Program-made: the position numbers and the translations under genes
Origin: Bradyrhizobium sp.
Lineage (GTDB): Bacteria > Pseudomonadota > Alphaproteobacteria > Rhizobiales > Xanthobacteraceae
Direction of reading: 5' to 3'
DNA: 64,000 bases
Assembly (NCBI RefSeq): GCF_028868675.1
Contig: NZ_JAGWUA010000002.1
Location: 600-64,599, forward strand
The notes under the pieces: generated by a model
The model's input: the letters and a program-made list of their open reading frames with translations, nothing else
What the model was told of the DNA's origin: nothing
Database searches by the model: none
Part shown: in pieces, positions 12,102-54,202 of the stretch
Layout of the letters: each line of letters opens with the position of its first letter
Numbering within the stretch: position 1 is the stretch's first letter

Positions 12102-14423
12102 ATGGCCCGGAGTTTCTTCGTGACGTCCAAACGACGCCAAGGCAGCTTCCTGCTCGCCCTGGTCCTTGTGATCTGCTCAGCGCTGTGGTCCCAGGCCGCA
12201 TGCGCGGCCGGCGACCTCGCCAACTACCTCGCCAAGGCCTCGCCTGCCGACTTTTTCCCCGGCGCCGATCGCTTCGGACCCCTGCAGGGCGATCCGCCCG
12301 TCGTTCCCGTCTATCGCGGCGATCAGCTCCAGGGCTTCGTCTACCTCAATTCCGATTTCGCCAACGCGGTCGGCTACTCCGGCAAGCCGATCCACATCCT
12401 CGTCGGCATCGACCCCAAGGGGATCGTTACCGCCGTGAAGCTGATCGACCACAAGGAGCCGATCGTCCTCGTCGGCATTCCCGAGGCGCGGATCGTCGCG
12501 GCCGTCAATGGCCTGATCGGCAAGGACATGAAGCCGGTGGCGCGCGGCACCGAGCCGCCGCCGCAGGTGGACATCGTCAGCGGCGCGACTGTCACCGTGC
12601 TGGTCATGAGCGACAGCATCGTGCGCTCCGCCTCGAAGCTGATCCGCAGCGGCCGCATCGGCGGCGGAGACGCTGTCGCCGCTGCCTCCGCGCTGCCGCC
12701 GGTGACGAAGACGGTCGATCTCGAGCACAGTGAAGTTCGCGACTGGACGAGCCTCGTCGGCGACGGCTCGGTGCGCCGCCTGCACTTGAGCATCGGCGAC
12801 GTCGACGACGCCTTCGCAAAGTCCGGCAGCGCTGCTGCCGCCCGGAATTCCGAGCCGGGCGAGGCTTCCGACACCTTCATCGACCTCTACGTCGCTCTCG
12901 CCAGCGTGCCGACCATCGGCCGCAGCCTGCTCGGCGACGAAGCCTATGAAAGGCTGAAGGGACGGTTGCAGCCGGGGCAGCAGGCAATTGTGGTGGCGGG
13001 CAACGGCGCCTACTCCTTCAAAGGCTCGGCCTACGTGCGCGGCGGCATCTTCGACCGCATCGAAGTGCTGCAGGAAGGATCCAGCACCCGTTTCCGGGAC
13101 CGCAACCACACCCGTCTCGGCGGGCTCGCCGCGGCCGGCGCGCCGGAGTTCAAGGAGATCGGCCTGTTCGTCACGCCGCCCGAATTCACGCTCGACCCTA
13201 CCGAACCGTGGCAACTGAAGCTGCTGGTCCAGCGAGCCACCGTCGGACGCGACAAGGCGTTCCTCACATTCGACATCAACTACGACCTGCCCGAACGCTA
13301 CGTCCGCCGTGAGCAGCGTGCCGTCACCGTGCCGGCCGGCGCTCCCTCGCCCGCGACGCAGACTGCGGCTACGGCCCAACCGGCGGAACACGCGGCCGAC
13401 GACGAAGAGCCGCTGTGGGTCCGGATGTGGCGTTCGCAAGCCGTCTCGATCGCGATCACGGCGGTCGCGCTGGCGATGCTCACCGTCATCTTCTTCTTTC
13501 AGAACTTCCTGGTCCGGCGACCGGTCTTCTACACCTGGGTTCGCCGCCTCTACCTCGTCTTCGTGCTGGTCTGGCTCGGCTGGTACGCCAATGCGCAGCT
13601 CTCCGTGGTCAACGTGGTGACTTTCGCCAACGCGCTGGTGACCGGTTTCCACTGGGAGTTCTTCCTGGCCGCGCCCCTGATCTTCATTCTGTGGGCGGCG
13701 ACCGCCGGCGGACTCCTGTTCTGGGGCCGCGGACCGTTCTGCGGCTGGCTGTGTCCCTTCGGCGCGTTGCAGGAACTCAGCAACACGGTCGCCAAGTGGC
13801 TCAAGGTGCCTCAGATCACGGTGCCCTGGGGGCTGCACGAGCGGCTGTGGCCCATCAAGTACATCATCTTCCTGGGTCTGTTCGGGTTGTCGCTCTATTC
13901 CGTCGACCTCGCGGAGCGTTTTGCCGAGGTCGAGCCGTTCAAGACCGCGATCATCCTGAAATTCGCGCGAAGCTGGCCGTTTGCGCTCTATGCCGTGGCG
14001 CTGCTCGTCATCGGTCTGTTCATCGAGCGGTTCTTCTGCCGCTACCTTTGTCCGCTCGGTGCGGCGCTCGCCATCCCCGGGCGAATGCGGACCTTCGAGT
14101 GGCTGCGCCGCTGGCAGGAATGTGGGTCGCCCTGTCAGCGCTGCGCCAAGGAATGCCCGGTGCAGTCGATCCATCCCGAGGGTCACATCAACGTGAACGA
14201 GTGCATCTACTGCATGCACTGCCAGGAGCTTTATTACGACGACCATCGCTGCCCGCATATGATCCAGGTGAGGCTCAAGCGCGAGAAGTTCGCGGCGATG
14301 TCGTCACCATCGATGCGCGGCGGCGGAGCAGGCCCGAAGACCATCATCACGCACGCGGGCCAGCCCTTGCCCCTGACTGCCGCGGCGTCCCCGGAACACT
14401 CACCAAGCCGCTCGGAAACCTGA
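12102..14423 (+). CDS. nosR: NosR flavo-iron-sulfur membrane protein
   Basis: FMN-attachment motif DIVSGATVT; [20 protein letters not shown]; C-terminal CxxxCxxCxxxC and CxxCxxC ferredoxin motifs. Confidence 0.97.
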
Positions 14424-14434
14424 AGGAGATGAAC

Positions 14435-16369
14435 ATGGATCGCGAGGAAGACAAGAACACGATCAGCCGCCGCCAGGTGGTTGGGACCGCCGCGGTCGGC
14501 GCGGCGGGCCTGGCGGGTGGGCTCGGTCTCGGCAAGGCCGTTGCGCCCGAGCAGGCGGCCGCGCAGGGAAGTCCCGCGGCCCGCGCCGGGACCCAGAAGA
14601 TCGAGGTCGCGCCGGGCGAGCTGGACGAATACTACGTGTTCTTCTCGAGCGGCCAGACCGGCGAAATCCGCATCATCGGCATGCCGTCGATGCGCGAGCT
14701 GATGCGTATTCCCGTCTTCAACCGCGACAGCGCCACCGGCTGGGGACTGACCAACGAGTCGCTCAAGATCCTGACCGAAGGCCTCACCCAGGAGACGCGC
14801 GACCGGCTCAAGGGTCGGATGAACGGGGTCTGGCAGAACGGCGACTGCCATCATCCGCACATGTCGTTCACCGACGGCACCTATGACGGGCGCTACATCT
14901 TCATCAACGACAAGGCCAACACGCGTCTCGCCCGCATCCGCACCGACGTCATGAAGTGCGACAAGATCATCGAGTTGCCGAACCAGTACACCATTCACGG
15001 CATGCGCCCGCAGAAATATCCACGCACGGGCTACGTCTTCTGCAACGGCGAATACGAGGTGCCGCTTCCGAACGACGGCAAGGTGCTGGACGACAAGACC
15101 AAGTATTGGTCGATGTTCTCGGCCGTCGACGGCGACACCATGAAGATTGCCTGGCAGGTGATCGTCGACGGCAATCTCGACAACACCGACGCCGACTACC
15201 AGGGCAAGTATGCATTCTCGACCTGTTATAATTCCGAGAAGGGCGTCACTCTCGCGGAGATGACCGCGAGCGAAACCGACTGGATCGTGATCTTCAACCT
15301 CAAGCGCATCGAGGACGCCGTCAAGAAGGGCGATTTCAAGGAGATGAACGGCGTGCCGGTGATCGACGGGCGCAAGGGGTCTGCCTACACTCGCTACGTT
15401 CCGATCCCCAACAGTCCGCACGGGATCAACACCGCGCCGGATGGCATCCATGTCGTGGCCAACGGCAAGCTGTCGCCGACGGTCTCCGTCTTCGACGTCC
15501 GCAAGTTCGACGATCTGTTCGATGACAAGATCAAGCCGCGCGATACGGTCGTCGCAGAGCCGGAGCTGGGATTGGGTCCGCTGCACACCGCCTTCGACGG
15601 TAAAGGCAACGCCTACACCACGCTGTTTCTCGACAGTCAGGTCTGCAAGTGGAACATCGAACAAGCCAAGCGCGCATTCAAGGGTGAGAAGGTCAACCCG
15701 ATCATCCAGAAGCTCGACGTCCACTACCAGCCGGGCCACAACCACTCCTCGATGGGCGAGACCAGGGAGGCCGACGGGAAATGGCTGATCTCGCTCAACA
15801 AGTTCTCCAAGGACCGCTTCATCAACGTCGGTCCGCTCAAGCCGGAGAACGACCAGCTGATCGACATCTCGGGCGATCAGATGAAGCTGGTACACGATGG
15901 CCCGAGCTTCGCCGAGCCGCATGACGCGGTCATCGTGCACCGCTCCAAGCTGGAGGGAAAGGTCATCAGCATCTGGAAGCGCGACGACCCATACTTCGCG
16001 GATGCGGTCAAGCAGGCCAAGGCCGACGGGGTCACGCTCGAGAGCGACGCCAAGGTGATCCGGGACGGCAACAAGGTGCGCGTCTACATGTACTCGGCCG
16101 CGCCCGCCTACGCGCTCGACAAGTTCGATGTCAAGCAGGGCGACGAGGTGACGGTCTACGTCACCAACATCGACGACGTCGAGGACCTGACCCACGGCTT
16201 CTGCATCGTCAACTACGGCATCAACATGGAGATCGGTCCGCAGCAGACCTCGTCGGTCACCTTCGTCGCCGACAAGCCCGGCGTCTACTGGTACTTCTGC
16301 ACATGGTTCTGCCACGCCATGCACATGGAAATGCGCGGGCGCATGCTGGTGTCGCCGCGGAACGCGTGA
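14435..16369 (+). CDS. nosZ: Nitrous oxide reductase, clade I (Tat)
   Basis: AAGGAG RBS; Tat SRRQVVG; CuZ His motifs GDCHHPH, IHG, PHG, PLH, GHNH, EPHD; CuA THGF and [12 protein letters not shown]. Confidence 0.98.
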
Positions 16370-16371
16370 CG

Positions 16372-17757
16372 ATGCGGTGCGCGCGTCACCTGGCGCTCTG
16401 GACGCTGGCGGCTCTCGCAGCCGCGGGTCTCGGTGCGCGCGCAGCCTCGGCGGAAAAGCATTTCGTCACGCCGGAGGCCGGCGACGTCCAACGAATTCTG
16501 GACGCCGCCGCCGACGGCGACGAAATTTGGCTGGCCGCGGGGACCTACCGAGGCCCGCTCCACATTGCGCATCGGCTTGTCCTCTCCGGAGCCGCCGGCG
16601 CGGTCGTCGCCGGTTCGGGGAAAGGCAGCGTCATCACGATTTCGGCGCCGGGTGCGGTCGTGCGCGGGCTGGAGGTGCGCGGCTCGGGGCGGTCGCTTGA
16701 AACCATGGACTCGGGAATTTTCGTCGAGCAGTCGGCGCGTGGCGCCGTCGTGGAGGACAACCGTCTCGAGGACAACCTCTTCGGGATGTACTTTCACGGA
16801 GCGCCTGACGCGGTGGCGCGCCACAACGTCGTCGTCGGACTGCGCCAGGCGCGCAACAGCGAGACCGGCAACGGAATCACGGTCTGGAACGCCCCGGGTG
16901 CCAAGGTGCTGGATAACGATTTCAGGTACGGGCGGGACGGCATCTTCGCGATCACCAGCCGCAACAACGTGGTGAAAGGCAATCGCTTCAGCGACCTGCG
17001 ATTCGCGGTCCACTACATGTACACCAACGACAGCGAGATCGTCGGGAACGTCTCGAAGAGCAATCTCATCGGCTACGCGCTGATGTTCTCCAGGAAGCTC
17101 GTGGTACGGGACAATGTCTCCGACCACGACCGCGATCGTGGCATTCTCTTCAACGCGTCCAATTACGATGAAATTTCCGGCAACACCGTGATTGGCGGAT
17201 TGCAGTCCGCCGAGCGTTGGGCGACGTCGGACAACCGCGCCGCGGACGAAGGCGTGCCCCAGGCGGAAACGACTTCGTCGGCGCCCATTCGAGACCAGCG
17301 GATCGGTCCCGAGAAGTGTGCCTTCATTTACAACACCAACAAGAATCGGATCGAACGCAACTGGTTCGAGGGCTGCGAGATCGGCGTACACTTCACCGCC
17401 GGCTCCGAGGGGAACGACATCACCGGCAACGCTTTCGTCAACAACGCCGCCCAGGTGAAATACGTCGGCACCCGCCATCTCGACTGGTCGAAGAACGGCC
17501 GCGGCAACTACTGGAGCGACAATCCGGCGTTCGACCTCAACGGCGATGGTGTCGCCGACACGGCCTACCGGCCGAACGGCCTCATCGACCGCGTGCTGTG
17601 GACGGCGCCTGCCGCGAAGCTCCTGATCAACAGCCCCGCCGTCCAGGTGATCCGCTGGGCCCAGGCCCAGTTTCCGGCGCTGCTTCCCGGCGGCGTGGTT
17701 GACAGCCATCCGCTGATGTCGCCGCCGAAGCGCCAGGCGGCCGAGGTAGTGCGATGA
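16372..17757 (+). CDS. nosD: NosD (clade I operon)
   Basis: CASH/beta-helix repeats, RDGIF, VHYMY, GNYWSDN, DGVADTAYRPN. Confidence 0.95.
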   Translation: MRCARHLALWTLAALAAAGLGARAASAEKHFVTPEAGDVQRILDAAADGDEIWLAAGTYRGPLHIAHRLVLSGAAGAVVAGSGKGSVITISAPGAVVRGLEVRGSGRSLETMDSGIFVEQSARGAVVEDNRLEDNLFGMYFHGAPDAVARHNVVVGLRQARNSETGNGITVWNAPGAKVLDNDFRYGRDGIFAITSRNNVVKGNRFSDLRFAVHYMYTNDSEIVGNVSKSNLIGYALMFSRKLVVRDNVSDHDRDRGILFNASNYDEISGNTVIGGLQSAERWATSDNRAADEGVPQAETTSSAPIRDQRIGPEKCAFIYNTNKNRIERNWFEGCEIGVHFTAGSEGNDITGNAFVNNAAQVKYVGTRHLDWSKNGRGNYWSDNPAFDLNGDGVADTAYRPNGLIDRVLWTAPAAKLLINSPAVQVIRWAQAQFPALLPGGVVDSHPLMSPPKRQAAEVVR

Positions 17758-18674
17758 CCGGCACGGTGCGTGTCACCGACGTCACCAAGGAGTACGGCCA
17801 GGTCAAGGCCGTCCGCGGCGCCTCGTTCGAGTTGGGGCAGGGCGAACTGGTGGCCTTGATCGGCCACAACGGCGCCGGCAAGACGACATTGATGAAGCTG
17901 ATGCTCGGGCTCATCCGTCCGACCGGCGGATCGATCGAGGTGCTCGGCGACAATCCGGCCGCCGGAGAGTTTTCGGGGAGACGGCGGCTCGGCTATCTGC
18001 CGGAGAACGTCTCGTTCGACGCAGCCCTGACCGGCCGCGAAACACAGGCGTTCTACGCCAGGCTGAAGCGGGAGCCGATCGCGAAAGCGCTGGAACTGCT
18101 CGACACGGTCGGGCTCGGCGTCGCCGCCGGGCGCCGCGTCGGCACCTATTCGAAGGGCATGCGACAGCGGCTTGGCCTCGCCCAGGCGCTGATCGGGCAT
18201 CCCAAGGTGCTGCTGCTGGACGAGCCGACCACGGGCCTCGACCCGGAGCTGCGGCAAACCTTCTACGAGATCATCGCGCGGCTCGCGGCCCAGGGCGCGA
18301 CGGTGCTGCTCTCCTCGCATTCCCTCACCGAGCTCGAGGAGCGCGCGGGGCGCGTGATCATCATGAACCGCGGCGTCAAGGTCGCCGACGGCTCGATCGA
18401 ACGGCTGCGCAACATCGCGCAGCTGCCGACCAGGATTCGGCTGAAGGTCGCCGGGCTCTCGCCCGCCGAATTGCCGCCGTGGCTGCCGAGCGGTGCGACC
18501 TGCAGACGGCTCAATGGCCACATCGTCGAGATCGATGCTGCGCCGGACCGGAAGATCGAGCTTCTGCACTGCGCAACGGCCGCGGGCAATTCCGTGGAAG
18601 ACGTCGATGTGGTCCAGCCGACTCTCGATGAGCTCTACGTCCACTTCCTCGGGCAGGCCGAGGTGACGTCATGA
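17754..18674 (+). CDS. nosF: NosF ABC ATPase
   Basis: GHNGAGKTT, YSKGMRQR, DEPTTGLD. Confidence 0.95.
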   Translation: MTGTVRVTDVTKEYGQVKAVRGASFELGQGELVALIGHNGAGKTTLMKLMLGLIRPTGGSIEVLGDNPAAGEFSGRRRLGYLPENVSFDAALTGRETQAFYARLKREPIAKALELLDTVGLGVAAGRRVGTYSKGMRQRLGLAQALIGHPKVLLLDEPTTGLDPELRQTFYEIIARLAAQGATVLLSSHSLTELEERAGRVIIMNRGVKVADGSIERLRNIAQLPTRIRLKVAGLSPAELPPWLPSGATCRRLNGHIVEIDAAPDRKIELLHCATAAGNSVEDVDVVQPTLDELYVHFLGQAEVTS

Positions 18675-19498
18675 ACGTGCCGATCATTGCGGCCAAGGAA
18701 ATCCATCAGGCGATCCGCAATCGCTGGGTGCTGGCCGCGACTCTCCTGCTCGCCGGGCTTGCCCTGTCGTTGACCTTTCTCGGCAGCGCGCCGACCGGCA
18801 GCGTCGGCGTCCGTGCCCTCGACGTCGTCATCGTCAGCCTTTCGAGCCTGACGATCTTTCTCGTTCCGCTGATTGCGCTTCTGATCTCGCATGACGCCAT
18901 CGTCGGCGACATGGAGCGCGGCACGATGCTGTTGCTGCTCAGCTATCCCGTCGCGCGATGGCAGGTGCTGATTGGCAAGTTCCTGGGGCACCTCGCGGTA
19001 TTGGGGTTCGCGACATGCTTCGGCTACGGGGTCGCCGTCGGCGCGTTGGCGGCGACCGGAAGCCGCATCGACCTCGACAGCCTTCTGGCCTTTGCAGCGA
19101 TGATCGGTTCATCCGTTCTGCTCGGCGCCGTGTTCGTCGCAATCGGCTATCTGGTGAGTGCCCTGGTGCGCGACCGCGGGACGGCGGCCGGTGTCTCCAT
19201 CGGACTTTGGCTGCTTCTCGTCCTGATCTACGACATGGCCTTGCTCGGCCTGCTCGCGCTCGACCAGGGCCGTCACATCTCCGCAGTGGCGTTGAATGCG
19301 ATGCTTCTTCTCAACCCGACGGACGTCTACCGGCTATTCAACCTGACCGGATTTGCCAATGTCAGCACCTTCGCGGGCATGGCCGGACTTGCCCAAAGCT
19401 CGTCCTTGTCCGTCCAGGCGCTGTTGTCAGCGTTGACGTTGTGGACGTTGGTCCCGCTGGGCCTCGCCGCAATTGCCTTCGCCCGGAGAGAGCTATGA
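18671..19498 (+). CDS. nosY: NosY ABC permease
   Basis: AKEI..IRNRW, ERGTMLLLLSYP, LLLNPTDVYRLFNL. Confidence 0.95.
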   Translation: MNVPIIAAKEIHQAIRNRWVLAATLLLAGLALSLTFLGSAPTGSVGVRALDVVIVSLSSLTIFLVPLIALLISHDAIVGDMERGTMLLLLSYPVARWQVLIGKFLGHLAVLGFATCFGYGVAVGALAATGSRIDLDSLLAFAAMIGSSVLLGAVFVAIGYLVSALVRDRGTAAGVSIGLWLLLVLIYDMALLGLLALDQGRHISAVALNAMLLLNPTDVYRLFNLTGFANVSTFAGMAGLAQSSSLSVQALLSALTLWTLVPLGLAAIAFARREL

Positions 19499-20028
19499 GG
19501 CGCCTCGCCATCGCCTTCGCGCTGCTGGCTTCGGTTACGCTGGCCGCCTGCCAGAAGGAGGCGGCGCAGCTTCCCGTCCCGCAGAAAATGACCGCCGAGG
19601 CCATCGGCCACTACTGCGGCATGAACGTGCTCGAGCATCCCGGGCCGAAGGGGCAGATCTTTGCCGCGAGCCTGATCGAGCCGGTGTGGTTCTCGTCCGT
19701 GCGGGACACCATCGCCTTCACCCTGCTGCCGGACGAGCCGAAAGACATCCAGGCGATCTATGTCTCCGACATGGCCAAGGCGCCGAGCTGGGACAAGCCG
19801 GGCGTCGACAACTGGATCGAGGCGCGCAGCGCGCTGTTCGTGATCGGCAGCCACGTCAAGGGTGGGATGGGCGGCGACGAACCCGTTCCGTTCTCGGACC
19901 GCGCGGCGGCGGAAAGATTTGCCGCCGAGAATGGCGGGCGCGTGGTGCCGTTCTCCGAAATCCCGCGCGACTACGTGCTGGCGTCGGGCGAGCCGCCGGA
20001 CCCGTCCGCGTCTGGGCAGTCGAACTAG
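19495..20028 (+). CDS. nosL: NosL copper chaperone lipoprotein
   Basis: Lipobox LAAC; GHYCGMNVLEHPGPKGQ; GGMGG. Confidence 0.95.
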   Translation: MRRLAIAFALLASVTLAACQKEAAQLPVPQKMTAEAIGHYCGMNVLEHPGPKGQIFAASLIEPVWFSSVRDTIAFTLLPDEPKDIQAIYVSDMAKAPSWDKPGVDNWIEARSALFVIGSHVKGGMGGDEPVPFSDRAAAERFAAENGGRVVPFSEIPRDYVLASGEPPDPSASGQSN

Positions 20029-20037
20029 GAGAAGGCC

Positions 20038-21067: not shown

Positions 21068-21460
21068 ATGAAACGATTGGTCTTCGCCGCGATCTTCATG
21101 GCCGCGGGCTTCGGGCAAGCCTGCGCCCAGGATGCCGCCGCCGGCGAAAAGGCGTTCGCGGTCTGCAAGGCGTGCCATCAGGTGGGAGACAACGCGAAGA
21201 ACGCCGTGGGACCCGTCCTCAATGGACTCTTCGGACGCAAGGCGGGCTCGGTCGAAGGCTACAACTATTCCGATGCCAACAAGAAGTCGGGCCTCACCTG
21301 GGACGAAGCGACCTTCTCGGAATACATCAAGGATCCGAAGGCAAAGGTCCCCGGCACCAAGATGGCCTTCGCCGGCATCAAGGACGAGCAGAAGATCAAG
21401 GACCTGATCGCCTACCTGCACACGTTCGACAAGGCGCCAGTCAAGCTGAGCCAGCAATAG
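21068..21460 (+). CDS. Cytochrome c2/c550-type class I cytochrome c
   Basis: Signal peptide, CKACH, VGPVLNG, PGTKM; AAGGAG RBS. Confidence 0.95.
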   Translation: MKRLVFAAIFMAAGFGQACAQDAAAGEKAFAVCKACHQVGDNAKNAVGPVLNGLFGRKAGSVEGYNYSDANKKSGLTWDEATFSEYIKDPKAKVPGTKMAFAGIKDEQKIKDLIAYLHTFDKAPVKLSQQ

Positions 21461-23326: not shown

Positions 23327-23383
23327 TGGCGGTTCCTGCTGTCGGATCGTCGGATGGTTGAAGGTTGGGCTGGTCGTCGAGCG

Positions 23384-36781: not shown

Positions 36782-36798
36782 GGGACGGCGGAGCGCGA

Positions 36799-42754: not shown

Positions 42755-42767
42755 TCGATTTTATCGA
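42755..42767. promoter_or_regulatory. LysR-type T-N11-A box upstream of yeiH
   Basis: TCGATTTTATCGA dyad in an AT-rich patch. Confidence 0.6.
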
Positions 42768-43057: not shown

Positions 43058-43071
43058 TTGATACAGCGCAA
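43058..43071. promoter_or_regulatory. FixK2/FNR-type box upstream of clade II nosZ
   Basis: TTGATACAGCGCAA fits TTG(A/C)-N6-(T/G)CAA; 490 nt upstream of the ATG. Confidence 0.6.
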
Positions 43072-45853: not shown

Positions 45854-45874
45854 GCTGACGCGAAGCAAGCAACG

Positions 45875-45905
45875 GCCTCGCCGCCATCGTCTTTGGCGGC
45901 GGGGC
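45875..45905 (+). terminator. Stem-loop after clade II nosZ
   Basis: GCCTCGCCGCCA-TCGTCTT-TGGCGGCGGGGC; no U-tract, so possibly an mRNA-stabilising hairpin. Confidence 0.5.
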
Positions 45906-45977
45906 GCAAGAAGCCAGAAGATCAATCTCGAAGCCGGGCGCATTGGTTGCGCCCGGCCCGATCCCGGGTACACGATC

Positions 45978-46634
45978 ATGAAGCCAATCCGTTTCTTCGC
46001 AGTCATCGCGGTCCTCGTCACGGCGTCGCCGGCGCTCGCGCAGACCGCGGCCTCACCTGCTGCGCTCGATGGCAAATCGCTGTTCCGGATCAAGACCTGC
46101 GTCGCCTGCCACGGGCGGGACGGCGCGAAGGCAATCCAGAACTATCCCGACCTCGCCGGGCAGGATTCGAAATACATGCAGGCGCAGATGGCCGCGATCG
46201 CCGACGGAAGTCGCGTCTCCGGTCCGGATGCGCGCGGCTATCCGCGCACGCAGGGCATGAAGGACGTGATGCATCTGACGAGCCCCGAGGAACGTGCCGC
46301 GATCGCGGAATTCCTGGCGAGCCAGCCCGCGCCGAAGCCGCGTCCGCTCGATCCGGCTCCGGACGCCGCGCGGCTCACCGCCGGAAAGGACGCCTATCTG
46401 AAGGGCGGTTGCGCGACCTGCCATGGCGCGGACGGTTTGAAGCCACTGGCGACATATCCGCTGATCGCGGGACAGAAGCGCGACTACATCGCGCTGCAGA
46501 TGACGGAAATTCGCGATGGAATCCGCAAGGGCGGCAAGGTCGCCACCATGGTTCCGTTCGCCAAGAAGCTCGACGATGCGAAGATCGGCCTGATCGCCGA
46601 TTACCTGTCGCAGGTCGAGCGGGCGCCGAAATAG
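45978..46634 (+). CDS. Diheme c4-like cytochrome c (NosC-type)
   Basis: Signal peptide; CVACH, CATCH; P.LAGQ/IAGQ motifs. Confidence 0.92.
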   Translation: MKPIRFFAVIAVLVTASPALAQTAASPAALDGKSLFRIKTCVACHGRDGAKAIQNYPDLAGQDSKYMQAQMAAIADGSRVSGPDARGYPRTQGMKDVMHLTSPEERAAIAEFLASQPAPKPRPLDPAPDAARLTAGKDAYLKGGCATCHGADGLKPLATYPLIAGQKRDYIALQMTEIRDGIRKGGKVATMVPFAKKLDDAKIGLIADYLSQVERAPK

Positions 46635-46668
46635 GCGCAGGACCCGAGAGACACGGAGAACGACGACG

Positions 46669-47415
46669 ATGAACAAGACTTTATTGGTGGGCATTCTCGC
46701 TGCTGCCCTGGCTGGAACCAGCCTGGTGAACGCAGCCGGACCTGCAGTCGACCAGCAGAAGTTCGAGGAGAACAAGCAGAAGAAGGAGTGGATGAGCCAG
46801 GGTGGCGAGCGCGAAGAGGCGCTCACGCTGAAGCCCAACAAGGACAATGGCCGCGAGGTCTACGAGGTCTGCTCGGCCTGTCACCTGCCGGAAGGATGGG
46901 GCCTGGTCGACGGGACGTTCCCGCAGCTTGCCGGCCAGCATCGGTCCGTCGTCATCAAGCAGCTCGCCGACATCCGCGACGGCCACCGCGACAATCCGAC
47001 GATGTATCCGTTCGCACTGCCGTCGGAGATCGGCGGCACGCAGGCGATCGCCGACGTCTCCGAATACATCGCGACCCTGAAGATGAACCCGGAGAACGGG
47101 GTCGGCAAGGGCGACGATCTGCAGCTCGGCGCGAAGCTCTACGCCGACAATTGCGTCCGCTGCCACGGTCCAGACGGCGCTGGCAACGCCGACAAATACT
47201 ATCCGCGCATTCAGGGCCAGCACTACGAGTACCTGGTGCGGCAGTATCGCTGGATCAGGGAAGGCAAGCGGCGCAACTCGAATCCCGAGATGGTCGAGCA
47301 GATCAAGAACTTCACGGACAAGGACACGCTCGCCGTGCTCGATTACGTCTCGCGCCTGAAGCCGCCGGCCGATCTGGTCGCGCCGAAGGGATGGAAGAAC
47401 CCGGACTTCAAGTAG
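46669..47415 (+). CDS. Diheme c4-like cytochrome c (NosC-type)
   Basis: Signal peptide; CSACH, CVRCH; PQLAGQH, PRIQGQH. Confidence 0.92.
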   Translation: MNKTLLVGILAAALAGTSLVNAAGPAVDQQKFEENKQKKEWMSQGGEREEALTLKPNKDNGREVYEVCSACHLPEGWGLVDGTFPQLAGQHRSVVIKQLADIRDGHRDNPTMYPFALPSEIGGTQAIADVSEYIATLKMNPENGVGKGDDLQLGAKLYADNCVRCHGPDGAGNADKYYPRIQGQHYEYLVRQYRWIREGKRRNSNPEMVEQIKNFTDKDTLAVLDYVSRLKPPADLVAPKGWKNPDFK

Positions 47416-47521
47416 GTCCCGGCGTTTCGGCCCAGGAATAGGATTGCGGAATTGGATTGCGGTCCGTCCCGTCGGCAGCACGGCCGACGGGCGGGGCTAT
47501 CGCAATGCGGGAGATCTGTTC

Positions 47522-48742
47522 ATGACGACGTCCATCAGCCCGTCCGGAAGGAGATCCACGAGTTCGCCTGCGAGCTCAGCATTCCGGCGAAAATGGGCGA
47601 TGCCGCTGATGCGCGTCGCCTCGCTCGTTGCCCTGCTGGCGCTCGGGGCGTCGTTCTTCGTGCCGGTCTGGTGGGTGTCGCTGAAGGCTCCGAATTATCC
47701 GGCGCAGACCTTCCCCCAGGGTGTCCGCATCAACTTCCACGTCAACCGCATCTCCAACGGCTGCGCGATGCGGGAGTCGAAGGAGGTCCTGGAGAAGGAG
47801 GCGCTCGACTGCGTGCACGAGATGGACACGATCAACCATTTCGTCGGCATGTATCCGATCGCGTCCGGAGGTCCGGTCGAGAAGCTGCTGTCGCCGTTCC
47901 TGTTTTCCTTCCTCGGCGTCCTGATCGTCGGCTTCGCGATGCCCGGCGTGCGGCTGCGAACGGCGGCGATGGCGCTCGGCTTCGGCGGGATCGCGGTGTG
48001 GATGTCGGTGGCGCTGTTTGCGCCGAACGGCGTCCGCTATCTCGATCGCGGCTGGGTGGTGGGCCTCGTCGACAGCCTCGGGCGCGCGGAGGACGAGGCC
48101 ACCAACGAGCAGCTCCATCCGGTGGTGAAGCAGCTCAAGGAATCGCTTGCCAGGAGCCATCTCGGCGAGGCGCCGGCGCCCAAGGCCGAGAGCAACGCCA
48201 GCAAGGACCAGCTGATCCAAGTCCTCAAGGCCGTCTACGAGCAGAAGGCGCCCGTCAGCCTGACCGAACCGGCGCCGGTGTGGACCGGTCGCGGCATCGA
48301 CGTGATGGCGTGGCACTATGAGGAGAGTCTTGGGCGCTGGTTCAACGAGCCCGCCAAGAACGAGCGGCTCGTCGCGATCATGAAGACGTCGCTCTACGTC
48401 GTGTATGGCGTCGTCCTGGCGGCGATGCTGGTCTTCCTGTGGGTCGCCCGCAAGCCGCGCTCGCTGCTGTTCTATGCGCTCGGCGCCATCCCGATGATCC
48501 TGCCCGTGGCCTTCGTCATGGAATACGCGGCCTGGCTCTGGTGGTACGGTCACAGCCTCAACGCGATGGGCGCGTTCACGCTCAAGCCGTTCATGCCGAC
48601 GGTGTTCGGCGACGGCAAGGTCGCGCAGTTCTCCACGCACTCCTATCCGTACACCGGCTTCGCGCTGATGTGCGTGGTCGGGGCGGCGATGGCGGTTGCC
48701 CTGCTGTTGCGCCGCGCCGCGCCGAACGCGGTGAAGGACTAG
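47522..48742 (+). CDS. nosB: NosB membrane protein (long form)
   Basis: WWVSLKAPNYP..FPQG, INHFVGM, WWYGHSL, FSTHSYP; position in a clade II cluster. Confidence 0.85.
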   Translation: MTTSISPSGRRSTSSPASSAFRRKWAMPLMRVASLVALLALGASFFVPVWWVSLKAPNYPAQTFPQGVRINFHVNRISNGCAMRESKEVLEKEALDCVHEMDTINHFVGMYPIASGGPVEKLLSPFLFSFLGVLIVGFAMPGVRLRTAAMALGFGGIAVWMSVALFAPNGVRYLDRGWVVGLVDSLGRAEDEATNEQLHPVVKQLKESLARSHLGEAPAPKAESNASKDQLIQVLKAVYEQKAPVSLTEPAPVWTGRGIDVMAWHYEESLGRWFNEPAKNERLVAIMKTSLYVVYGVVLAAMLVFLWVARKPRSLLFYALGAIPMILPVAFVMEYAAWLWWYGHSLNAMGAFTLKPFMPTVFGDGKVAQFSTHSYPYTGFALMCVVGAAMAVALLLRRAAPNAVKD

Positions 48743-48746
48743 GGCA

Positions 48747-50168
48747 ATGCCGGCGCTGCCGCGACTGCCGGGCTGGGCGAAGGGCGGCGCCCTCGTCCTC
48801 TCGGGGCTCGCGGTCGCCGCGCTCGTGGCCGTCGGCTTCGGCAAGATCGCCGTCACCTTCGGCGTCTATGACCTCACGCGCGACGCCGGCTTCGCCGACC
48901 ATCATCCGCCGCCGCCGGATCCGCGCTCGGAAGCCGAGTTGGAGAGCCTGCGCCGCTTCCCGCGAGGTGCGACGGCGCTTCAGCCGCTGATCGACGCCAC
49001 CCCGACGGGTGGCGTGCTGCACCTTGCGCCCGGCATCTACGCGGCTCCCGGCATCGTCGGCCGGCCGCTGCGCATCGAGGGTGAGCCGGGCGCCGTCATC
49101 GACGGCGGCGGGGTCGGCTCGATCATGACCGTGGCCGCGGACGACGTGCAGGTCATCGGGCTGACCTTCCGCAATTCCGGCGAGCGGCATGAATCGACCG
49201 ACTCCGCCCTGCGCCTGCGGGGCAAGCACGGGATCTTCCGCGACAACGTCATCGAGGACTGCCTATTCGGCTTCGAGCTGAAGCAGTCGGACATGAACAT
49301 CATCCGGCGCAACCGCATTTCGTCGAAGGATCTGCCCGAGGCGTTGCGCGGCGACGCCGTCCGCGTCTGGTACTCCAACGGCAACCGGATCGAGGACAAC
49401 GACATCGTCCGCACGCGCGACACGGTCGTCTGGTATTCGAAGGAGAACACCATCGACGGCAACCGGATCCGCGACAGCCGGTACGGCGTGCACCTGATGT
49501 ATGCGCATCAGAACAACCTGCGACGCAACGTTCTCGTGGCGAACACCGTGGGCGTATTCCTGATGTACGCCAACGACAACGTGCTGGCCGACAACGTCAT
49601 CCATTACAGCCAGGGGCCGTCGGGCATCGGAATCGGCTTCAAGGAATCCTCCGGCGCCCGCATCGAGCACAACGACGTGTTCGCCAATGCGCGCGGCCTG
49701 TTCATGGATGCCTCTCCCTACGACCCCGACTCGCCCAATCTCTTCGCCGCCAACCGTTTTGCCTACAACGGCGTCGCCATCGCCTTCCACTCCGGCTGGG
49801 AGGGCAATACCTTCAAGGACAACGCCTTCCTCGGCAATCACGCCCAGGCCATGGTCGCCGGCGGCGGCTCGGCGCAGCGCAACGTCTGGGCCGGGAACTT
49901 CTGGGATTCCTACGACGGATTTGATCGAAATCACGATGGCGTCGGCGATACGCCCTACCGTATCTGGACCTGGGCCGACCGACTGTGGATGGACGTGCCC
50001 GATGCGCAGTTCTTCCGTGCCGCGCCGTCGCTCGAGATGATCGATCTCGTCGAGCGCCTCGGTTCGCTCATGGAGCCGCGCCTCGTGCTGTCGGATCCCC
50101 TGCCGCGCGTCGGCGCGGTCGCCGCGGCGGGGCCACGTGGCGTGGCCGTGAGAGAGGTCTTGCAATGA
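48747..50168 (+). CDS. nosD: NosD (clade II cluster)
   Basis: RGDAVRVWYS, RYGVHLMY, GNFWDSYDGFDRNHDGVGDTPY. Confidence 0.93.
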   Translation: MPALPRLPGWAKGGALVLSGLAVAALVAVGFGKIAVTFGVYDLTRDAGFADHHPPPPDPRSEAELESLRRFPRGATALQPLIDATPTGGVLHLAPGIYAAPGIVGRPLRIEGEPGAVIDGGGVGSIMTVAADDVQVIGLTFRNSGERHESTDSALRLRGKHGIFRDNVIEDCLFGFELKQSDMNIIRRNRISSKDLPEALRGDAVRVWYSNGNRIEDNDIVRTRDTVVWYSKENTIDGNRIRDSRYGVHLMYAHQNNLRRNVLVANTVGVFLMYANDNVLADNVIHYSQGPSGIGIGFKESSGARIEHNDVFANARGLFMDASPYDPDSPNLFAANRFAYNGVAIAFHSGWEGNTFKDNAFLGNHAQAMVAGGGSAQRNVWAGNFWDSYDGFDRNHDGVGDTPYRIWTWADRLWMDVPDAQFFRAAPSLEMIDLVERLGSLMEPRLVLSDPLPRVGAVAAAGPRGVAVREVLQ

Positions 50169-50953
50169 AGGACGGTGAATTCGACGCTCCCGCTCCGCCG
50201 GCGAAGGCTGCGTCGCGGGTCGACGAGGAGCGTCGGCGCATGTTGCGCTCGGCCGCGGTCGGCGGCGCCGTGGCCTGCGCGGCCCTGCTGGGCCTGCTCG
50301 ACCATCGCGTGGCGCGGGCCGCGCCGCGGCTTCGGCCGCCCGGAGCGCTCGACGAGGAGGATTTTCTCGCCGCCTGCATCAAGTGCGGACAATGCGTGCA
50401 GGTCTGCCCGGTCGACGCAATCCGGCTCGGCGACCTGAACGAGGGGCTGGCCAACGGCGTTCCGCACATCGTGGCCCGGCACCAGGCCTGCGACTTCTCC
50501 TGCGACGCCACGCAATGCGTCCTGGCGTGCCCGACCGGTGCGCTGAGCCACCTGATCGACCGCAAGGAGCAGACGCGAATGGGCGTGGCGCGCCTCGCCG
50601 CGCCGGACGCCTGCCTCGCGCGCAAGGGCGCGGGCTTCAAGGGCGCCACGCGCGGCGCTGATTTCAAGGGACGTCTGCGTTATGCCGAGATCGACCGGTG
50701 GAAGCCGCAGCCGGTCGCCGATCATCCCTATGATCTCGAGCTTTGCGATCTCTGTGTCCGGCAGTGTCCGATCGAGAACGCAATCGCGCTGGCGCCCATG
50801 TCGGACGATCCGAAGGACCATCGCCGCACCCCGGTGGTGAAGGACGCCTGCGTCGGTTGCGGCGTCTGTGAGATGGTCTGCCCCGTCGAGCCGGCGGCGA
50901 TCCGCATCGAGGTCCGCATCACCGGTCGCGATCCCGGAGGACCCAGCGCATGA
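50165..50953 (+). CDS. nosG: NosG (NapG/MauM-like Fe-S protein)
   Basis: Tat-like RRRML; LRPPGA, CIKCGQCVQVCP, CDLCVRQCP, CVGCGVCEMVCP. Confidence 0.9.
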   Translation: MKDGEFDAPAPPAKAASRVDEERRRMLRSAAVGGAVACAALLGLLDHRVARAAPRLRPPGALDEEDFLAACIKCGQCVQVCPVDAIRLGDLNEGLANGVPHIVARHQACDFSCDATQCVLACPTGALSHLIDRKEQTRMGVARLAAPDACLARKGAGFKGATRGADFKGRLRYAEIDRWKPQPVADHPYDLELCDLCVRQCPIENAIALAPMSDDPKDHRRTPVVKDACVGCGVCEMVCPVEPAAIRIEVRITGRDPGGPSA

Positions 50954-51972
50954 GCAACAGACTGATCGCGCGCAAGCTGCGGGATCTGGCGCTGATGTTC
51001 GGCGCCGCCCCGAAGAAGCCCACTCCGGAGGACATGACCGAAGACGCGCGCGACATGCTCGCCTTCAAGAAGAGCCCCGAGCAGCGCAAGTGGCGCAAGG
51101 CCGCGATCGCGAGCGAGCGCGCCGAGGCGGCGGTGTCGCACAAGTGGCGCTGGATTCGCTGGGCGACGATCTTCGGCTTCAACGGCCTGTTCGTGGCCTC
51201 GTACTGGCTGGACCTGCAGCTCTTCGAAGGAGCGCTGACGGCCTCCCGCGTGCTGGGCTTCCACCTCGCCGACCTCAATTCGTCGCTGCAGCTCATGCTC
51301 GCGCACAAGCACGTCGTGGTCAATCTCGTGATCGGCGTGACGACGGTCTGGCTGATCTACGCGGTGATCGGCGGCCGGAATTTCTGCTCATGGGTCTGCC
51401 CGTACCACTTCCTGGCCGAGCTCGCGGAGATGGTGCATCTGAAGCTCGCGGCGAAGAAGCTGGTGCGCGACCACGAGCTCGATCGGCGGCTGCGTGTCGT
51501 CATGTTCTTCGTGTTCGCCGTGCTCGCCTTCGTCTCCGGCTATCCGCTGTTCGAGGCGATCTCGCCCGTCGGCATCCTGTCACGCGCGCTCACCTACGGC
51601 ACCGTGATCAGCCTGATCTGGGTGGCGCTGCTGCTGCTTGCCGAAATCGTCTGGTCGCGGCGGCTGTGGTGCCGCTACATCTGCCCCGTCGGGCTCGGCT
51701 ATGGCCTCGCCGGCGTCGCGGCGCCGGTACGGATCATGTACGACGCGGACAAGTGCCTGCACGAGGGCAAATGCCGGCAGGTCTGTCTCGTTCCCCACGT
51801 CCTCGACATGACCAAGCTCGGTTTTGCGCGCGATGTCGAGACCCCGGTCGGTGCCGATTGCACGCGTTGCGCGATGTGCATCGACGTCTGTCCGACCGGT
51901 GCGCTCACCTTCGACATTCTCGGCCTGGCGCGCTCCGGCGTCGAGGACACGCCCGAGGACGTCGGGTCATGA
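50950..51972 (+). CDS. nosH: NosH (NapH-like membrane Fe-S quinol dehydrogenase subunit)
   Basis: FCSWVCP, WCRYICP, CLHEGKCRQVC, CTRCAMCIDVCP. Confidence 0.9.
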   Translation: MSNRLIARKLRDLALMFGAAPKKPTPEDMTEDARDMLAFKKSPEQRKWRKAAIASERAEAAVSHKWRWIRWATIFGFNGLFVASYWLDLQLFEGALTASRVLGFHLADLNSSLQLMLAHKHVVVNLVIGVTTVWLIYAVIGGRNFCSWVCPYHFLAELAEMVHLKLAAKKLVRDHELDRRLRVVMFFVFAVLAFVSGYPLFEAISPVGILSRALTYGTVISLIWVALLLLAEIVWSRRLWCRYICPVGLGYGLAGVAAPVRIMYDADKCLHEGKCRQVCLVPHVLDMTKLGFARDVETPVGADCTRCAMCIDVCPTGALTFDILGLARSGVEDTPEDVGS

Positions 51973-52853
51973 TTCTCGTCGACGGGCTGACCAAGAGGTT
52001 CGGCGCCACGCGCGTGCTCGACGGTCTGTCGATCGAGGCGCCTTCGGGTCAGCGCATTGCGCTGGTCGGCTCGAACGGCGCCGGCAAGACCAGCCTGTTC
52101 CGCTGTCTGCTCGGGGAATACGCCTGTCAGGGATCGATTTCCGTCGATGGACTGGATCCGCGCCGCGACCGCGCGCGGCTGCTGCGAACCATCGGATTCG
52201 TGCCGCAGATCGCGCCGCGGCTGGAAACGCCCGTCGGGGCCTTCATCCGCTATGTGGCCGAAGTGTCGGGCGCCTCGGTCGACGAGATCGAAGCGGTCGC
52301 GACCAGCCTCGGTCTCGACGTCGCCGCCGTGCGCAAGCGCGCCTTCGTGCGGTTGTCCGGCGGCATGAAGCAGAAGCTGATGATCGCGCTGGCGCTCGGC
52401 CGGCCGACCAGGCTCCTGATCCTCGACGAGCCGACCGCGAACCTCGATCCGGCAGCGCGCGCGGGCCTGTACGATCTGCTGGCGGCGCGCGGCCGGCACA
52501 CGGCCATGATCATCTCGAGCCACCGCATCGACGAGATCGCGCCTCTGGTGGACCGGGTCGTGGAACTCGACCGCGGACGCATCGTGCTCGACGATACCGT
52601 GAGCGACGCCGGTGCATTGGGATCGACTTTCTTCGCGCAGATCGAAACCGGCCGCCCCGAGGAAAGCTTTGCGCGCGCGGCGCGCGAATGGGGTCTGGCG
52701 CAGGTCGAGGAGCGGCGCTGGCGCGGCACGATCGCCGGGCCCGACAGGCTGCGGTTCCTCGGCTTCGTGGCGCGCCATGCCGGGCGGCTTGCCGGCGTCG
52801 AGTTGCGCGAGGCTCATCGGGAGAACGGCAATGCCGATACGCATTCCGCCTGA
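51969..52853 (+). CDS. nosF: NosF ABC ATPase (clade II)
   Basis: GSNGAGKTS, LSGGMKQK, DEPTANLD. Confidence 0.9.
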   Translation: MILVDGLTKRFGATRVLDGLSIEAPSGQRIALVGSNGAGKTSLFRCLLGEYACQGSISVDGLDPRRDRARLLRTIGFVPQIAPRLETPVGAFIRYVAEVSGASVDEIEAVATSLGLDVAAVRKRAFVRLSGGMKQKLMIALALGRPTRLLILDEPTANLDPAARAGLYDLLAARGRHTAMIISSHRIDEIAPLVDRVVELDRGRIVLDDTVSDAGALGSTFFAQIETGRPEESFARAAREWGLAQVEERRWRGTIAGPDRLRFLGFVARHAGRLAGVELREAHRENGNADTHSA

Positions 52854-53316
52854 GACGCGCCCTGGTGCGACGCGCCGCCGCTTCGTCTGCATGGGGCTCG
52901 GCCTCGCCGTTGCCGGCGGCCTTGCCGGCTGCTCGGAGGCCCGGCCGGCGCCGCGGGCCGTGCGGCTGAAGCGCGAGAGCTGCGACCATTGCGGCATGCC
53001 GATCGGCGATACTCGCTTTGCCAGCGAGATCTGGAATGCCGAATACGGACGGGTGCGGGTCTACGACGATTTCGGCTGCGCGGTGCTCGCCGCGTCCGCG
53101 CGCAAGGAGCTCGACCGGGCCGAAATCGCCTTCTGGGTCGCCGACGAGAGCGACCCTTCGCGCTGGCTCGACGCGCGCACGGCGCATTACCGCAGCGGCG
53201 TCGCCACGCCGATGGGGCACGGCTATGCGGCCGGACCCGAGCGCGATCATCCCGTCGACTACGTGACCGCCTACACCGCCATCTGCGCCAAGGCGCTCTG
53301 CGCCGGTGCGACCTGA
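52831..53316 (+). CDS. nosL: NosL copper chaperone (clade II type)
   Basis: RRRF leader with lipobox LAGC; CDHCGM, DDFGCA, TPMGHG. Confidence 0.88.
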   Translation: MPIRIPPETRPGATRRRFVCMGLGLAVAGGLAGCSEARPAPRAVRLKRESCDHCGMPIGDTRFASEIWNAEYGRVRVYDDFGCAVLAASARKELDRAEIAFWVADESDPSRWLDARTAHYRSGVATPMGHGYAAGPERDHPVDYVTAYTAICAKALCAGAT

Positions 53317-53323
53317 GGTGACC

Positions 53324-54202
53324 ATGCTGCTCGCTTCGCCCGACATCGCGCGCGATCTGCAAGACTCCGGCCTCGGATCCGGATTGGCGGCGACGTTCCG
53401 CCTCGAGGTTTCGCAGGCGCTGCGCGCCCGCTGGTTCTGGGCTTATGCCGCGGTGTTCTTCGGTCTTGTCGGCCTGCTCTTGGTGTTCGGCCTGACGGAG
53501 TCGCGCGTGCTCGGCTTCACCGGCCTGTCGCGCACGCTGGTGGCCTATATCCAGCTCTCGATGGCGATCCTGCCGATCTTCGTGCTCATCACCACGGTGC
53601 GGTCGCTGGCCGGGGACCGGGAAGCCGGCGTGTACGAATACGTGCTCGGACTGCCGGTCGGGATCGGCGGCTGGTACGCCGGCCGCTTCTTCGCGCGCTA
53701 CGCGCTCGCGGTCGCGCCGGTGCTCGGCGCGCTCGTCTCGGCGGTCGCCTACGGCGCGGCGCGCGGCGTCGCCATTCCCTGGGTGGAACTCGGCTTCGAC
53801 ATCGGACTTCTGCTCGCCATGATCCTCGCCTTCGTCGGACTGGGCTTCTTCATCGCGTCGGTGGCGAGTTCGGTGGATCTGGCCCAGACGGCGGCCTTCC
53901 TGTTGTGGCTCGTGCTGATCCTCGGGCTCGATCTCGTTCTGCTCGGCGTCCTGATCCGCGATCGCATGCCGGTCGAGGGCGTCGTCGCCATTGCACTGCT
54001 CAATCCGTTGCAAGTGTTCCGGATCGGGTCCATGGTCCTATTCGATCCGCAGCTCGTCCTCCTGGGCTCGACGGCCTATGCCGTCTTCGACGTCTTCGGC
54101 CGGGTCGGCTTCATGGTCTGGTCGCTCGCTTACCCCCTCGCGCTCGGAATCGGCGCAGCCTATGCGGGTTTCCTGGTATTCCGACGTGGAGATCTCCTGT
54201 GA
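53324..54202 (+). CDS. nosY: NosY ABC permease (clade II)
   Basis: DREAGVYEY, LLNPLQVFR; multi-TM; follows nosF-nosL. Confidence 0.88.
   Translation: MLLASPDIARDLQDSGLGSGLAATFRLEVSQALRARWFWAYAAVFFGLVGLLLVFGLTESRVLGFTGLSRTLVAYIQLSMAILPIFVLITTVRSLAGDREAGVYEYVLGLPVGIGGWYAGRFFARYALAVAPVLGALVSAVAYGAARGVAIPWVELGFDIGLLLAMILAFVGLGFFIASVASSVDLAQTAAFLLWLVLILGLDLVLLGVLIRDRMPVEGVVAIALLNPLQVFRIGSMVLFDPQLVLLGSTAYAVFDVFGRVGFMVWSLAYPLALGIGAAYAGFLVFRRGDLL

Follow-up and report, generated by a model that had tools for sequence, protein, structure and literature searches.

Clade I and clade II nitrous oxide reductase gene sets linked on one contig of a Bradyrhizobium-like bacterium

Introduction

Does a single bacterium keep two nitrous oxide (N2O) reductase systems of different clades, each with its own maturation and electron-transfer genes, and are both retained under selection? 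The question is raised by a 64,000-nucleotide (nt) stretch of a Bradyrhizobium sp. contig (NZ_JAGWUA010000002.1; hereafter, the window), which carries a clade I nos gene set (cluster I, 12102-21033) and a clade II nos gene set (cluster II, 43562-54202). An earlier sequence-only reading had noticed both NosZ clades with their own accessory genes and no frameshifts. We consider it likely that the window represents a single piece of the chromosome of a Bradyrhizobium-like host with two independent, intact and selectively maintained N2O-reductase systems. Each system is ordinary for its clade; what is uncommon is the presence of both in Bradyrhizobium, linked on 42 kb, with reverse-type dissimilatory sulfite reductase (DSR) genes between them.

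In clade I systems, NosZ is exported by the twin-arginine translocation (Tat) pathway, NosDFY and NosL build and supply the copper centres, and NosR, once flavinylated by the ApbE-type protein NosX, sustains activity; electrons arrive from the cytochrome bc1 complex via cytochrome c550 or pseudoazurin. In clade II systems such as that of Wolinella, NosZ is exported by the general secretory (Sec) pathway, NosGH and NosC1/NosC2 link quinol to NosZ, and NosB is needed. The gene order in Wolinella succinogenes is reportedly nosZ-B-D-G-C1-C2-H-F-Y-L.

Two NosZ proteins of different clades

Clade membership was assessed with the NCBI curated equivalog models TIGR04244 (TAT-dependent) and TIGR04246 (Sec-dependent), each with a cut-off of 625. 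NosZ-I (nosZ-I, 14429-16369, + strand) scored 1140.6 bits against TIGR04244 and 497.7 bits, under the cut-off, against the Sec model. NosZ-II (nosZ-II, 43562-45853, + strand) scored 868.5 bits against TIGR04246 over residues 45-641 and 384 bits, again under the cut-off, against the TAT model. Against the solved NosZ structures, all of which are clade I, the scores were approximately 900 bits for NosZ-I and 300 bits for NosZ-II. The two proteins are 36% identical and the genes have one 143-nt stretch at 73% nt identity in common, which ruled out a recent nosZ duplication.

The N-terminal signals fit the export routes that had been proposed from sequence, Tat for NosZ-I and Sec for NosZ-II. NosZ-I carries a twin arginine in ISRRQVVG followed by a hydrophobic region, and NosZ-II starts with the lysine-rich, Sec-type MKSLLKMSVAAGALLCFGGTAAFA, then AE, without a twin arginine. 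The copper-binding side chains align as well: each protein has seven histidines for CuZ, and His, Cys, Cys, His and Met for CuA. The CuZ motifs of NosZ-I, aligned to the solved structures, are DCHHP, TIHGM, NSPHG, GPLHT, QPGHNH, AEPHD and LTHGF; those of NosZ-II are DTHHP, SEHGG, KSPHG, GPLHT, NIGHLT, GEPHY and ETHGF, with the CuA segment CTEFCSALHLEM. The earlier statement that the CuA ligands are present in both copies is accurate for these five residues but not for the CuA-loop Trp (CTWFC in clade I), which is Glu (CTEFC) in NosZ-II; this is the sole difference at a ligand position. The Trp position binds through its backbone carbonyl.

Relatives of NosZ-II were sought among 185,579 species representatives, yielding 79 related clade II loci (L001-L079), of which 64 are complete clusters. 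Beyond its cupredoxin domain, NosZ-II has a C-terminal extension of about 120 amino acids (aa; residues 642-763, 45485-45853) that is charged and Trp-rich, WQQATLWANQWWQYQ, and in which neither a haem motif nor a domain match was found. Almost all of the 79 relatives, including those at only 70% identity, retain the extension in full.

Accessory genes of the two clusters

Reading frames were chosen by third-position G+C content (GC3) and named with Pfam and NCBIfam models. Cluster I comprises nosRZDFYLX and a c550-like cytochrome gene, all on the + strand. It opens at the ATG of nosR (12102-14423), which encodes an FMN-binding polyferredoxin membrane protein (FMN_bind and Fer4_5) with 80% aa identity and synteny to that of the Bradyrhizobium sp. 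metagenome-assembled genome (MAG) L082. After nosZ-I follow nosD (16372-17757; Pfam NosD), nosF (17754-18674; Pfam ABC_tran) and nosY (18671-19498; Pfam ABC2_membrane_2), all three full length compared with L082 and with ratios of nonsynonymous to synonymous substitution rates (dN/dS) of 0.11-0.17. The set is continued by nosL for a copper lipoprotein (19495-20028; Pfam NosL, 165.7 bits) and nosX for an ApbE-family flavin transferase (20038-21033; Pfam ApbE, 200 bits) with the twin-arginine signal SRRRFIR at its N-terminus. The adjoining gene (21068-21460) encodes a CycA/c550-like monohaem cytochrome c (Cytochrom_C; one CxxCH), which scored 179 bits on NF043008 (Bradyrhizobium c550), under the cut-off of 240, and would be a candidate electron donor to NosZ-I. 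A rubrerythrin-like gene (11035-12009, - strand) is divergent from nosR, an arrangement also seen in the nearest Bradyrhizobium MAG. Populations vary within this gene set: in the contig of one public metagenome run (X2), an 88-nt patch of nosR (12938-13025) near the contig end showed about 25 differences and a compensating 1-nt insertion/deletion.

Cluster II has the order nosZ, two dihaem cytochromes c, a NosB-like gene and nosD-G-H-F-L-Y, also all on the + strand. The two NosC1/NosC2-like cytochromes (45978-46634, with CxxCH at 41 and 145; 46669-47415, with CxxCH at 68 and 162) each have a Sec signal and are kept in 75/79 and 76/79 relatives, respectively. The NosB-like membrane protein (47522-48742, with the start at 47522 or 47600) has six predicted hydrophobic helices and matched zero Pfam or NCBIfam models; its orthologues occur at the same position in 24/64 complete related clusters, and its dN/dS is 0.17. 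Runs X2 and X3 have one base fewer at 47492, a short way before the probable start of NosB. The next genes are nosD-II (48747-50168; Pfam NosD, 146.9 bits), nosG (50165-50953), encoding a polyferredoxin with the Tat motif ERRRML and four Fe-S motifs, and nosH (50950-51972), whose NapH-like product has 4-5 helices and scored 233.6 bits on NapH/MauN TIGR02163 (cut-off 213). The products of nosG and nosH together form a putative quinol dehydrogenase. Then follow nosF-II (51969-52853; ABC_tran, 88 bits), a gene for a NosL-like lipoprotein (52831-53316) and nosY-II (53306-54202; ABC2_membrane_2), whose stop at 54202 closes the cluster. The NosL-like protein has a twin arginine in its N-terminus. 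Its identity to NosL-I is 26%, and the lipobox Cys and a CGM motif align between the two. Neither nosR nor nosX was found near cluster II, which has a NosGH-type module and c-type cytochromes instead.

Each part is encoded once per system, with candidates for NosB and the second NosL, so that the two enzymes could be matured and fed independently. The first claim of the sequence-only reading, two NosZ clades each with an accessory set free of frameshifts, agrees with the TIGR04244 and TIGR04246 scores, the ligands and the full-length genes.

Physical linkage and the host

A contig of 66.5 kb, apparently derived from a metagenome, might be an assembly or binning chimera of a clade I organism and a clade II organism, a possibility that the sequence-only reading had itself raised; the tRNA-Arg gene and k-mer depth spikes at conserved genes could be read in the same sense. 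We searched public runs with each nosZ separately and obtained near-identical run lists. Nine studies, on soil, wastewater, sediment, wetland and sludge, supplied 17 runs that contain both nosZ genes, and the word shares of the two genes co-varied (e.g., 1.00/0.93, 0.95/0.98, 0.84/0.84, 0.55/0.64 and 0.36/0.34). Overlapping contigs from four independent metagenomes covered 10-48 kb at a flat depth of approximately 10x, 40x, 33x and 6x, respectively. In two of these four runs the coverage extended across the whole window, and the core genes (yidC, argB) and the right flank had the same baseline, single-copy depth as cluster I, dsr and cluster II. In run X3, overlapping contigs tile 10-57 kb, one of them an 11.9-kb contig that spans 45.4-57.4 kb. 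Depth spikes were found solely at conserved genes that pick up k-mers from other bradyrhizobia. In addition, an identical NosZ-II protein was found on Logan contigs of two runs, each independently joining lysR-yeiH to nosZ-II. Flat depth, tiling contigs and co-occurrence in 17 runs thus exclude chimerism as far as short-read metagenome contigs allow, and we regard it as extremely improbable. The earlier distance of 27 kb is correct from nosZ to nosZ; the gap between the clusters is 22.5 kb.

By its genes, the host is a Bradyrhizobium-like alphaproteobacterium. The YidC proteins of B. manausense, B. liaoningense and B. guangdongense match the one in the window at 88% identity, and all named matches among the best 120 are Bradyrhizobium. 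The G+C content is 62-70% along the window, with no compositional break.

Selection and origin

Pairwise dN/dS was calculated against the nearest available orthologues, from L082 for cluster I and from Bradyrhizobium sp. Y36 for cluster II. The values were 0.09 for nosZ-I, 0.05 for nosZ-II, 0.09-0.23 for other nos genes and 0.41 for nosL-II; the last is inflated because the open reading frame (ORF) used includes non-coding sequence upstream of the true start. Synonymous divergence was 0.5-1.2, every nos gene was full length compared with its orthologue, and stop codons and truncations were not found. The dN/dS range of 0.05-0.41 together with this synonymous divergence indicates long purifying selection on both sets, which argues against a relic and is silent on present regulation. 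Long-term inactivity of either copy is unlikely, judging from these substitution patterns.

The closest named relatives of NosZ-I are from Bradyrhizobium (85-90%) and include a cluster with B. oligotrophicum S58 and ORS 375. Rubrerythrin-nosRZDFYLX is collinear with L082 at 80% nt identity, and synteny stops directly after nosX. Relatives and collinearity together indicate that cluster I is native. For NosZ-II, the closest relatives are Bradyrhizobium sp. Y36 (96% aa identity), Rhodoblastus MAGs (89-91%), Rhodoplanes (87%) and Pinisolibacter (86%), followed by other Hyphomicrobiales, other Alphaproteobacteria (71-78%) and Beta- and Gammaproteobacteria (approximately 70%). The Y36 locus (NosZ WP_097659381.1; genome GCF_002531575.1) has the same gene order and is collinear from nosZ-II to the redoxin gene, a span of 12.3 kb with 83% nt identity, whereas the 10 kb before nosZ-II in Y36 bear no relation to the window. 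The GC3 of nosZ-II (0.86) is similar to that of nosZ-I (0.89), dsrA (0.87) and yidC (0.92), indicating that lateral acquisition, if any, was not recent. Cluster II is probably an old lateral acquisition from other Hyphomicrobiales.

Two possible vehicles were considered, and neither gained support. For a mobile island, the 3' end of the tRNA-Arg gene is not repeated in the window, and an integrase, long direct repeats and a composition step were not seen there. For a plasmid origin, no PLSDB plasmid has more than 19% of the clade II cluster.

Clade I nos genes were found within 10 kb of 0/79 related clade II loci; the close linkage of the two sets may be particular to this lineage. The genotype itself recurs. 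The MAG of Rhodoblastus sp. STL-PRO24 (GCA_046349085.1) has a clade I nosRZD locus (NosZ 83%) on JAXMDA010000003 and a clade II set (L003, 90%) on contig 5, and that of Rhodoplanes sp. Cfx2-03 (GCA_013377085.1) has a clade I nosRZD locus (NosZ 80%) on contig 1 and a clade II set (L004, 87%) on contig 32. These cases suggest that the two-clade pair is maintained in several Hyphomicrobiales and that the genotype is not unique. In the window, unlike in these MAGs, both clades lie on one contig, 22.5 kb apart, with dsr between them.

Comparison with known systems and the literature

Cluster I has the rubrerythrin(-)-nosRZDFYLX order of the Bradyrhizobium clade I systems (B. diazoefficiens USDA 110 type; L082), and has the Tat signal, NosR, NosX/ApbE and an FNR/FixK-type box before nosR in common with them. 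After nosX, L082 continues with an ABC transporter and an amidase, whereas the window continues with the c550-like cytochrome, sulfur genes and the second nos system.

Cluster II resembles the Wolinella cluster in its Sec-type NosZ, NosGH, two c-type cytochromes, candidate NosB-type protein and nosDFY with a nosL-like gene, and in having neither nosR nor nosX. It differs in three respects: the cytochromes and the NosB-like gene stand directly after nosZ; NosZ-II has the 120-aa extension of no known domain in place of a C-terminal haem domain; and the host is presumed to be a ubiquinone organism, with menA/menG-like genes adjoining cluster II. Cluster II also resembles the Azospira/Dechloromonas/Accumulibacter/Sulfuricella loci (L031-L079), whose NosZ is approximately 70% identical over its full length, including the C-terminal extension. 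Their order is nosZ-cyt c-cyt c-nosD-G-H-F-Y, often with MenA-like, UbiE-like, redoxin and SCO1 genes nearby, as in the window. Unlike the window, these loci have betaproteobacterial hosts, and NosB-like and NosL-like genes were not detected in them at the same threshold.

The view that Bradyrhizobium nos operons are clade I, which the sequence-only reading had taken as known, is out of date, since a 2022 publication described the clade II nosZ of Y36 and reported it to be atypical for Rhizobiales, with possible lateral transfer (Kim et al. 2022, PMC9381517). That study treats Y36 as the lone clade II case in Rhizobiales and leaves a clade I copy unmentioned. In our list of named NosZ-I relatives Y36 is absent, a result for that list only. 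In micro-oxic chemostats consuming trace N2O, an 83%-identical clade II nosZ (MAG MS_R2_11, here L010) was among the top-transcribed nosZ genes (PMC9381517). Sun et al. (2024, PMC11131594) supplied acidic microcosms with N2O and enriched Rhodoplanes in them; pH selected there for taxa with clade II nosZ, and Rhodoplanes MAGs with nosZ were recovered. Our full-text literature search, which included PMC9381517 and PMC11131594, found no description of a two-clade genome, and thus no confirmation of the earlier statement that a few betaproteobacterial denitrifiers have both. Among 1,083 wastewater MAGs, one survey counted 27 clade I and 401 clade II carriers, and 15 MAGs with two clade II copies, and left a mixed case unmentioned.

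Upstream elements and regulation

An FNR/FixK-type palindrome, TTGACGGAAGTCAA (11971-11984, + strand), lies in the intergenic region common to the rubrerythrin-like gene and nosR, about 120 nt before nosR; a regulatory function would be expected from its sequence and position. Across the window, 3 exact TTGA-N6-TCAA sites were counted where 0.43 would be expected. The nosZ-II gene is preceded by an 880-nt non-coding leader (42684-43561, + strand; G+C 0.60), bounded upstream by yeiH (- strand), that contains the FixK-like site TTGATACAGCGCAA (43058-43071). In most of the alphaproteobacterial relatives, a clear box of the TTGAC-N4-GTCAA type stands 130-390 nt upstream of nosZ-II. From these motifs, both nos systems probably answer to a low-oxygen- or nitric oxide-sensing CRP/FNR regulator; with FNR/FixK-type boxes before both clusters, a role split is not evident at the level of regulation.

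Within the leader, a public gene caller had placed 'orf208' (208 aa), which we rejected: its GC3 is 0.61 compared with 0.86-0.92 in real genes, and neither a domain nor a homologue in the 79 relatives was found. A small palindrome, TCGATTTTATCGA, near 42750 is possibly a LysR site for yeiH.

Sulfur-oxidation and quinone genes

The gap between the clusters contains sulfur-oxidation genes that were absent from the earlier reading. On the - strand lie tusA, dsrE2 and a gene for a sulfide:quinone oxidoreductase (SQR)-like flavoprotein (23099-25251; TusA, DrsE_2 and Pyr_redox_2); DsrE2 scored 218.5 bits on NF047629 (cut-off 210), and the type III SQR model matched weakly. The reverse-DSR cluster dsrABEFHCMKLJOPN (27230-39428, + strand) was named with Pfam and NCBIfam, with 580 bits for dsrA on TIGR02064 (cut-off 392) and 698 bits for DsrL on NF009410 (cut-off 516). 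It includes a trihaem DsrJ, two DsrE-family genes, a DsrH-like ORF, DsrC and an NrfD-type DsrP, and its gene content marks it as complete and of the oxidative (reverse) type. The gap also holds genes for an Mrp/ApbC Fe-S carrier, a LysR regulator and a YeiH-like membrane protein.

The closest named DsrA proteins are those of Blastochloris sulfoviridis (88%), Rhodomicrobium (87%), Roseiarcus, Pinisolibacter and Siculibacillus, with a range of 83-88% for Blastochloris, Rhodomicrobium and Pinisolibacter; the best relatives are sulfur-oxidising phototrophs, and Bradyrhizobium is absent from the best 120 matches. Pinisolibacter (L006) and Siculibacillus (L018) also carry a clade II cluster. With its dsr set, the host has the look of a sulfur-oxidising bacterium. 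Electrons for N2O respiration could plausibly come from reduced sulfur, and the two processes may be functionally coupled.

Within 54199-57036 lie genes for a menA-like prenyltransferase (+ strand; TIGR00751, 139.8 bits against a cut-off of 102), a TlpA/ResA-like thiol oxidoreductase (+ strand; Pfam), a UbiE/MenG methyltransferase (- strand; TIGR01934, 244.8 bits against 158) and SCO1/SenC (- strand; Pfam). This neighbourhood is conserved for clade II clusters of this type: of the 64 complete clusters among the relatives, in Alpha-, Beta- and Gammaproteobacteria, 43 have a MenA-like or UbiE-like gene within 10 kb. The menA/menG-like genes may constitute a dedicated naphthoquinone supply for NosGH.

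Discussion

We propose the following working of the two systems. In system 1, NosZ-I would be folded and exported by Tat, with NosDFYL supplying its copper centres and NosX-flavinylated NosR keeping the enzyme reduced; its electrons would most likely pass from the bc1 complex to the c550-like cytochrome and on to NosZ-I. System 2 would be of the proteobacterial Azospira/Dechloromonas/Y36 type, with NosZ-II exported unfolded via Sec and served by its own NosDFY(L). Its electrons would pass from quinol to NosGH, then through the two dihaem cytochromes c to NosZ-II, with participation of the NosB-like protein. For N2O respiration, the cell can probably draw on reduced sulfur in addition to organic electron donors. 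From the genes we infer that both enzymes are produced and work, that electrons take these routes, that sulfur oxidation is coupled to N2O reduction and that roles may be split, e.g., between high flux and trace N2O.

Several observations limit the case for two intact, working systems on one segment. The metatranscriptomes contained just 5-7% of the sampled words, and their matches were 20-60-nt chance pieces of unrelated contigs, which speak neither for nor against expression. The linkage is seen on short-read contigs, not single molecules. Some parts are assigned below the family thresholds: NosR scored 817.6 bits on NCBIfam NF046105 (equivalog cut-off 1000), NosG scored 137.9 bits on the NapG family (178.9), and NosB is identified by position and topology only. 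The earlier claim that nosD, nosF, nosY and nosL are duplicated is clear for the first three and less so for nosL, since NosL-II scored 16.9 bits against a Pfam NosL cut-off of 24. The FixK-like site before nosZ-II is a relaxed one, 504 nt away, and the relaxed pattern is unenriched in the window (5 against 2.5 expected). The two-clade relatives are binned MAGs with the clusters on different contigs, for which mis-binning is possible. Finally, dsr genes were found within 10 kb of 0/79 related clade II loci, so that the sulfur link may be a positional coincidence.

Alternatively, the pair may represent plain redundancy, in which a clade II set, perhaps with dsr, joined clade I by lateral acquisition, and both work at the same job under the same regulator, kept through a gene-dosage benefit or drift. 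The FNR/FixK-type boxes before both clusters would suggest the same low-oxygen signal, and insertion is consistent with a flank unlike that of Y36 and with the absence of clade I nos within 10 kb of any related clade II locus. We hold redundancy to be unlikely but worth serious weight, considering that strong purifying selection acts on both sets (about 17 nos genes), that the pair recurs in two other lineages with a fully ameliorated composition here, and that duplicate maturation and electron-transfer modules are costly unless functions differ. It is very doubtful that one system is silent or catalytically dead, a relic that has yet to decay. The RNA runs gave only chance fragments for this population, NosL-II is very divergent, and the presumed regulator site of nosZ-II is both far off and degenerate, all of which would fit a relic; against this stand the intact metal ligands and export signals, the lack of stop codons and truncations, the low dN/dS of both NosZ genes (0.05 for NosZ-II and 0.09 for NosZ-I) and near-identical sequences over 17 runs from nine studies.

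A wider proposal, which we regard as quite unlikely, is that a 45-kb stretch forms a co-inherited unit for sulfur-driven N2O respiration with two electrically separate branches. In one branch, reverse DSR and the SQR-like protein would load a menaquinone-type pool, made with the menA/menG-like genes, that feeds NosGH, the cytochromes and NosB and hence the high-affinity clade II enzyme; in the other, the clade I enzyme would run on the ubiquinol-bc1-c550 route. If this were true, clade II Nos would have a low-potential quinone of its own in Proteobacteria of the ubiquinone type, which would be new respiratory-chain biology and could account for physiological differences between the clades.

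Under the preferred reading of two independent, maintained systems, a kinetic or condition-specific division of labour would be a reasonable hypothesis. Clade II reducers are reported, in work cited by PMC13585965, to have a higher N2O affinity than clade I reducers. Such comparisons span different organisms, so that enzyme and host are not separable as causes. A single host with both complete systems would permit an isogenic comparison of the clades, and the main value of this locus is as a natural single-host system. Clade II nos clusters are distributed over several Hyphomicrobiales, and since the two-clade genotype recurs in the order, miscounts can arise in marker-gene surveys that take each nosZ clade to stand for a separate organism. 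The host genus is a model for N2O-mitigating inoculants; the inoculant relevance suggested earlier is nonetheless weak, because the metagenomes with this population come from wastewater, wetland, sediment, sludge and soil and not from nodules. It looks like a free-living, probably sulfur-oxidising organism.

Flanking genes

The left flank (1-10 kb) consists of core genes (dapD, a HAD hydrolase gene, argB, engB, yidC and a histidine kinase gene), followed by tRNA-Arg(ACG) (10368-10444) immediately ahead of the cluster I region. Contigs of run X3 that match this tRNA gene run on as unrelated AT-rich sequence past 10444; these could come from other organisms with the same tRNA or represent an alternative junction. 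The right flank (57037-63999) contains genes for a shikimate-kinase-fused, helix-turn-helix BoxR-like regulator (NF006015, 'anaerobic benzoate catabolism transcriptional regulator', 439 bits), an AMP-forming ligase, an enoyl-CoA hydratase-family protein and a PaaA/BoxB-like oxygenase, which together look like a benzoyl-CoA (box) pathway cluster.

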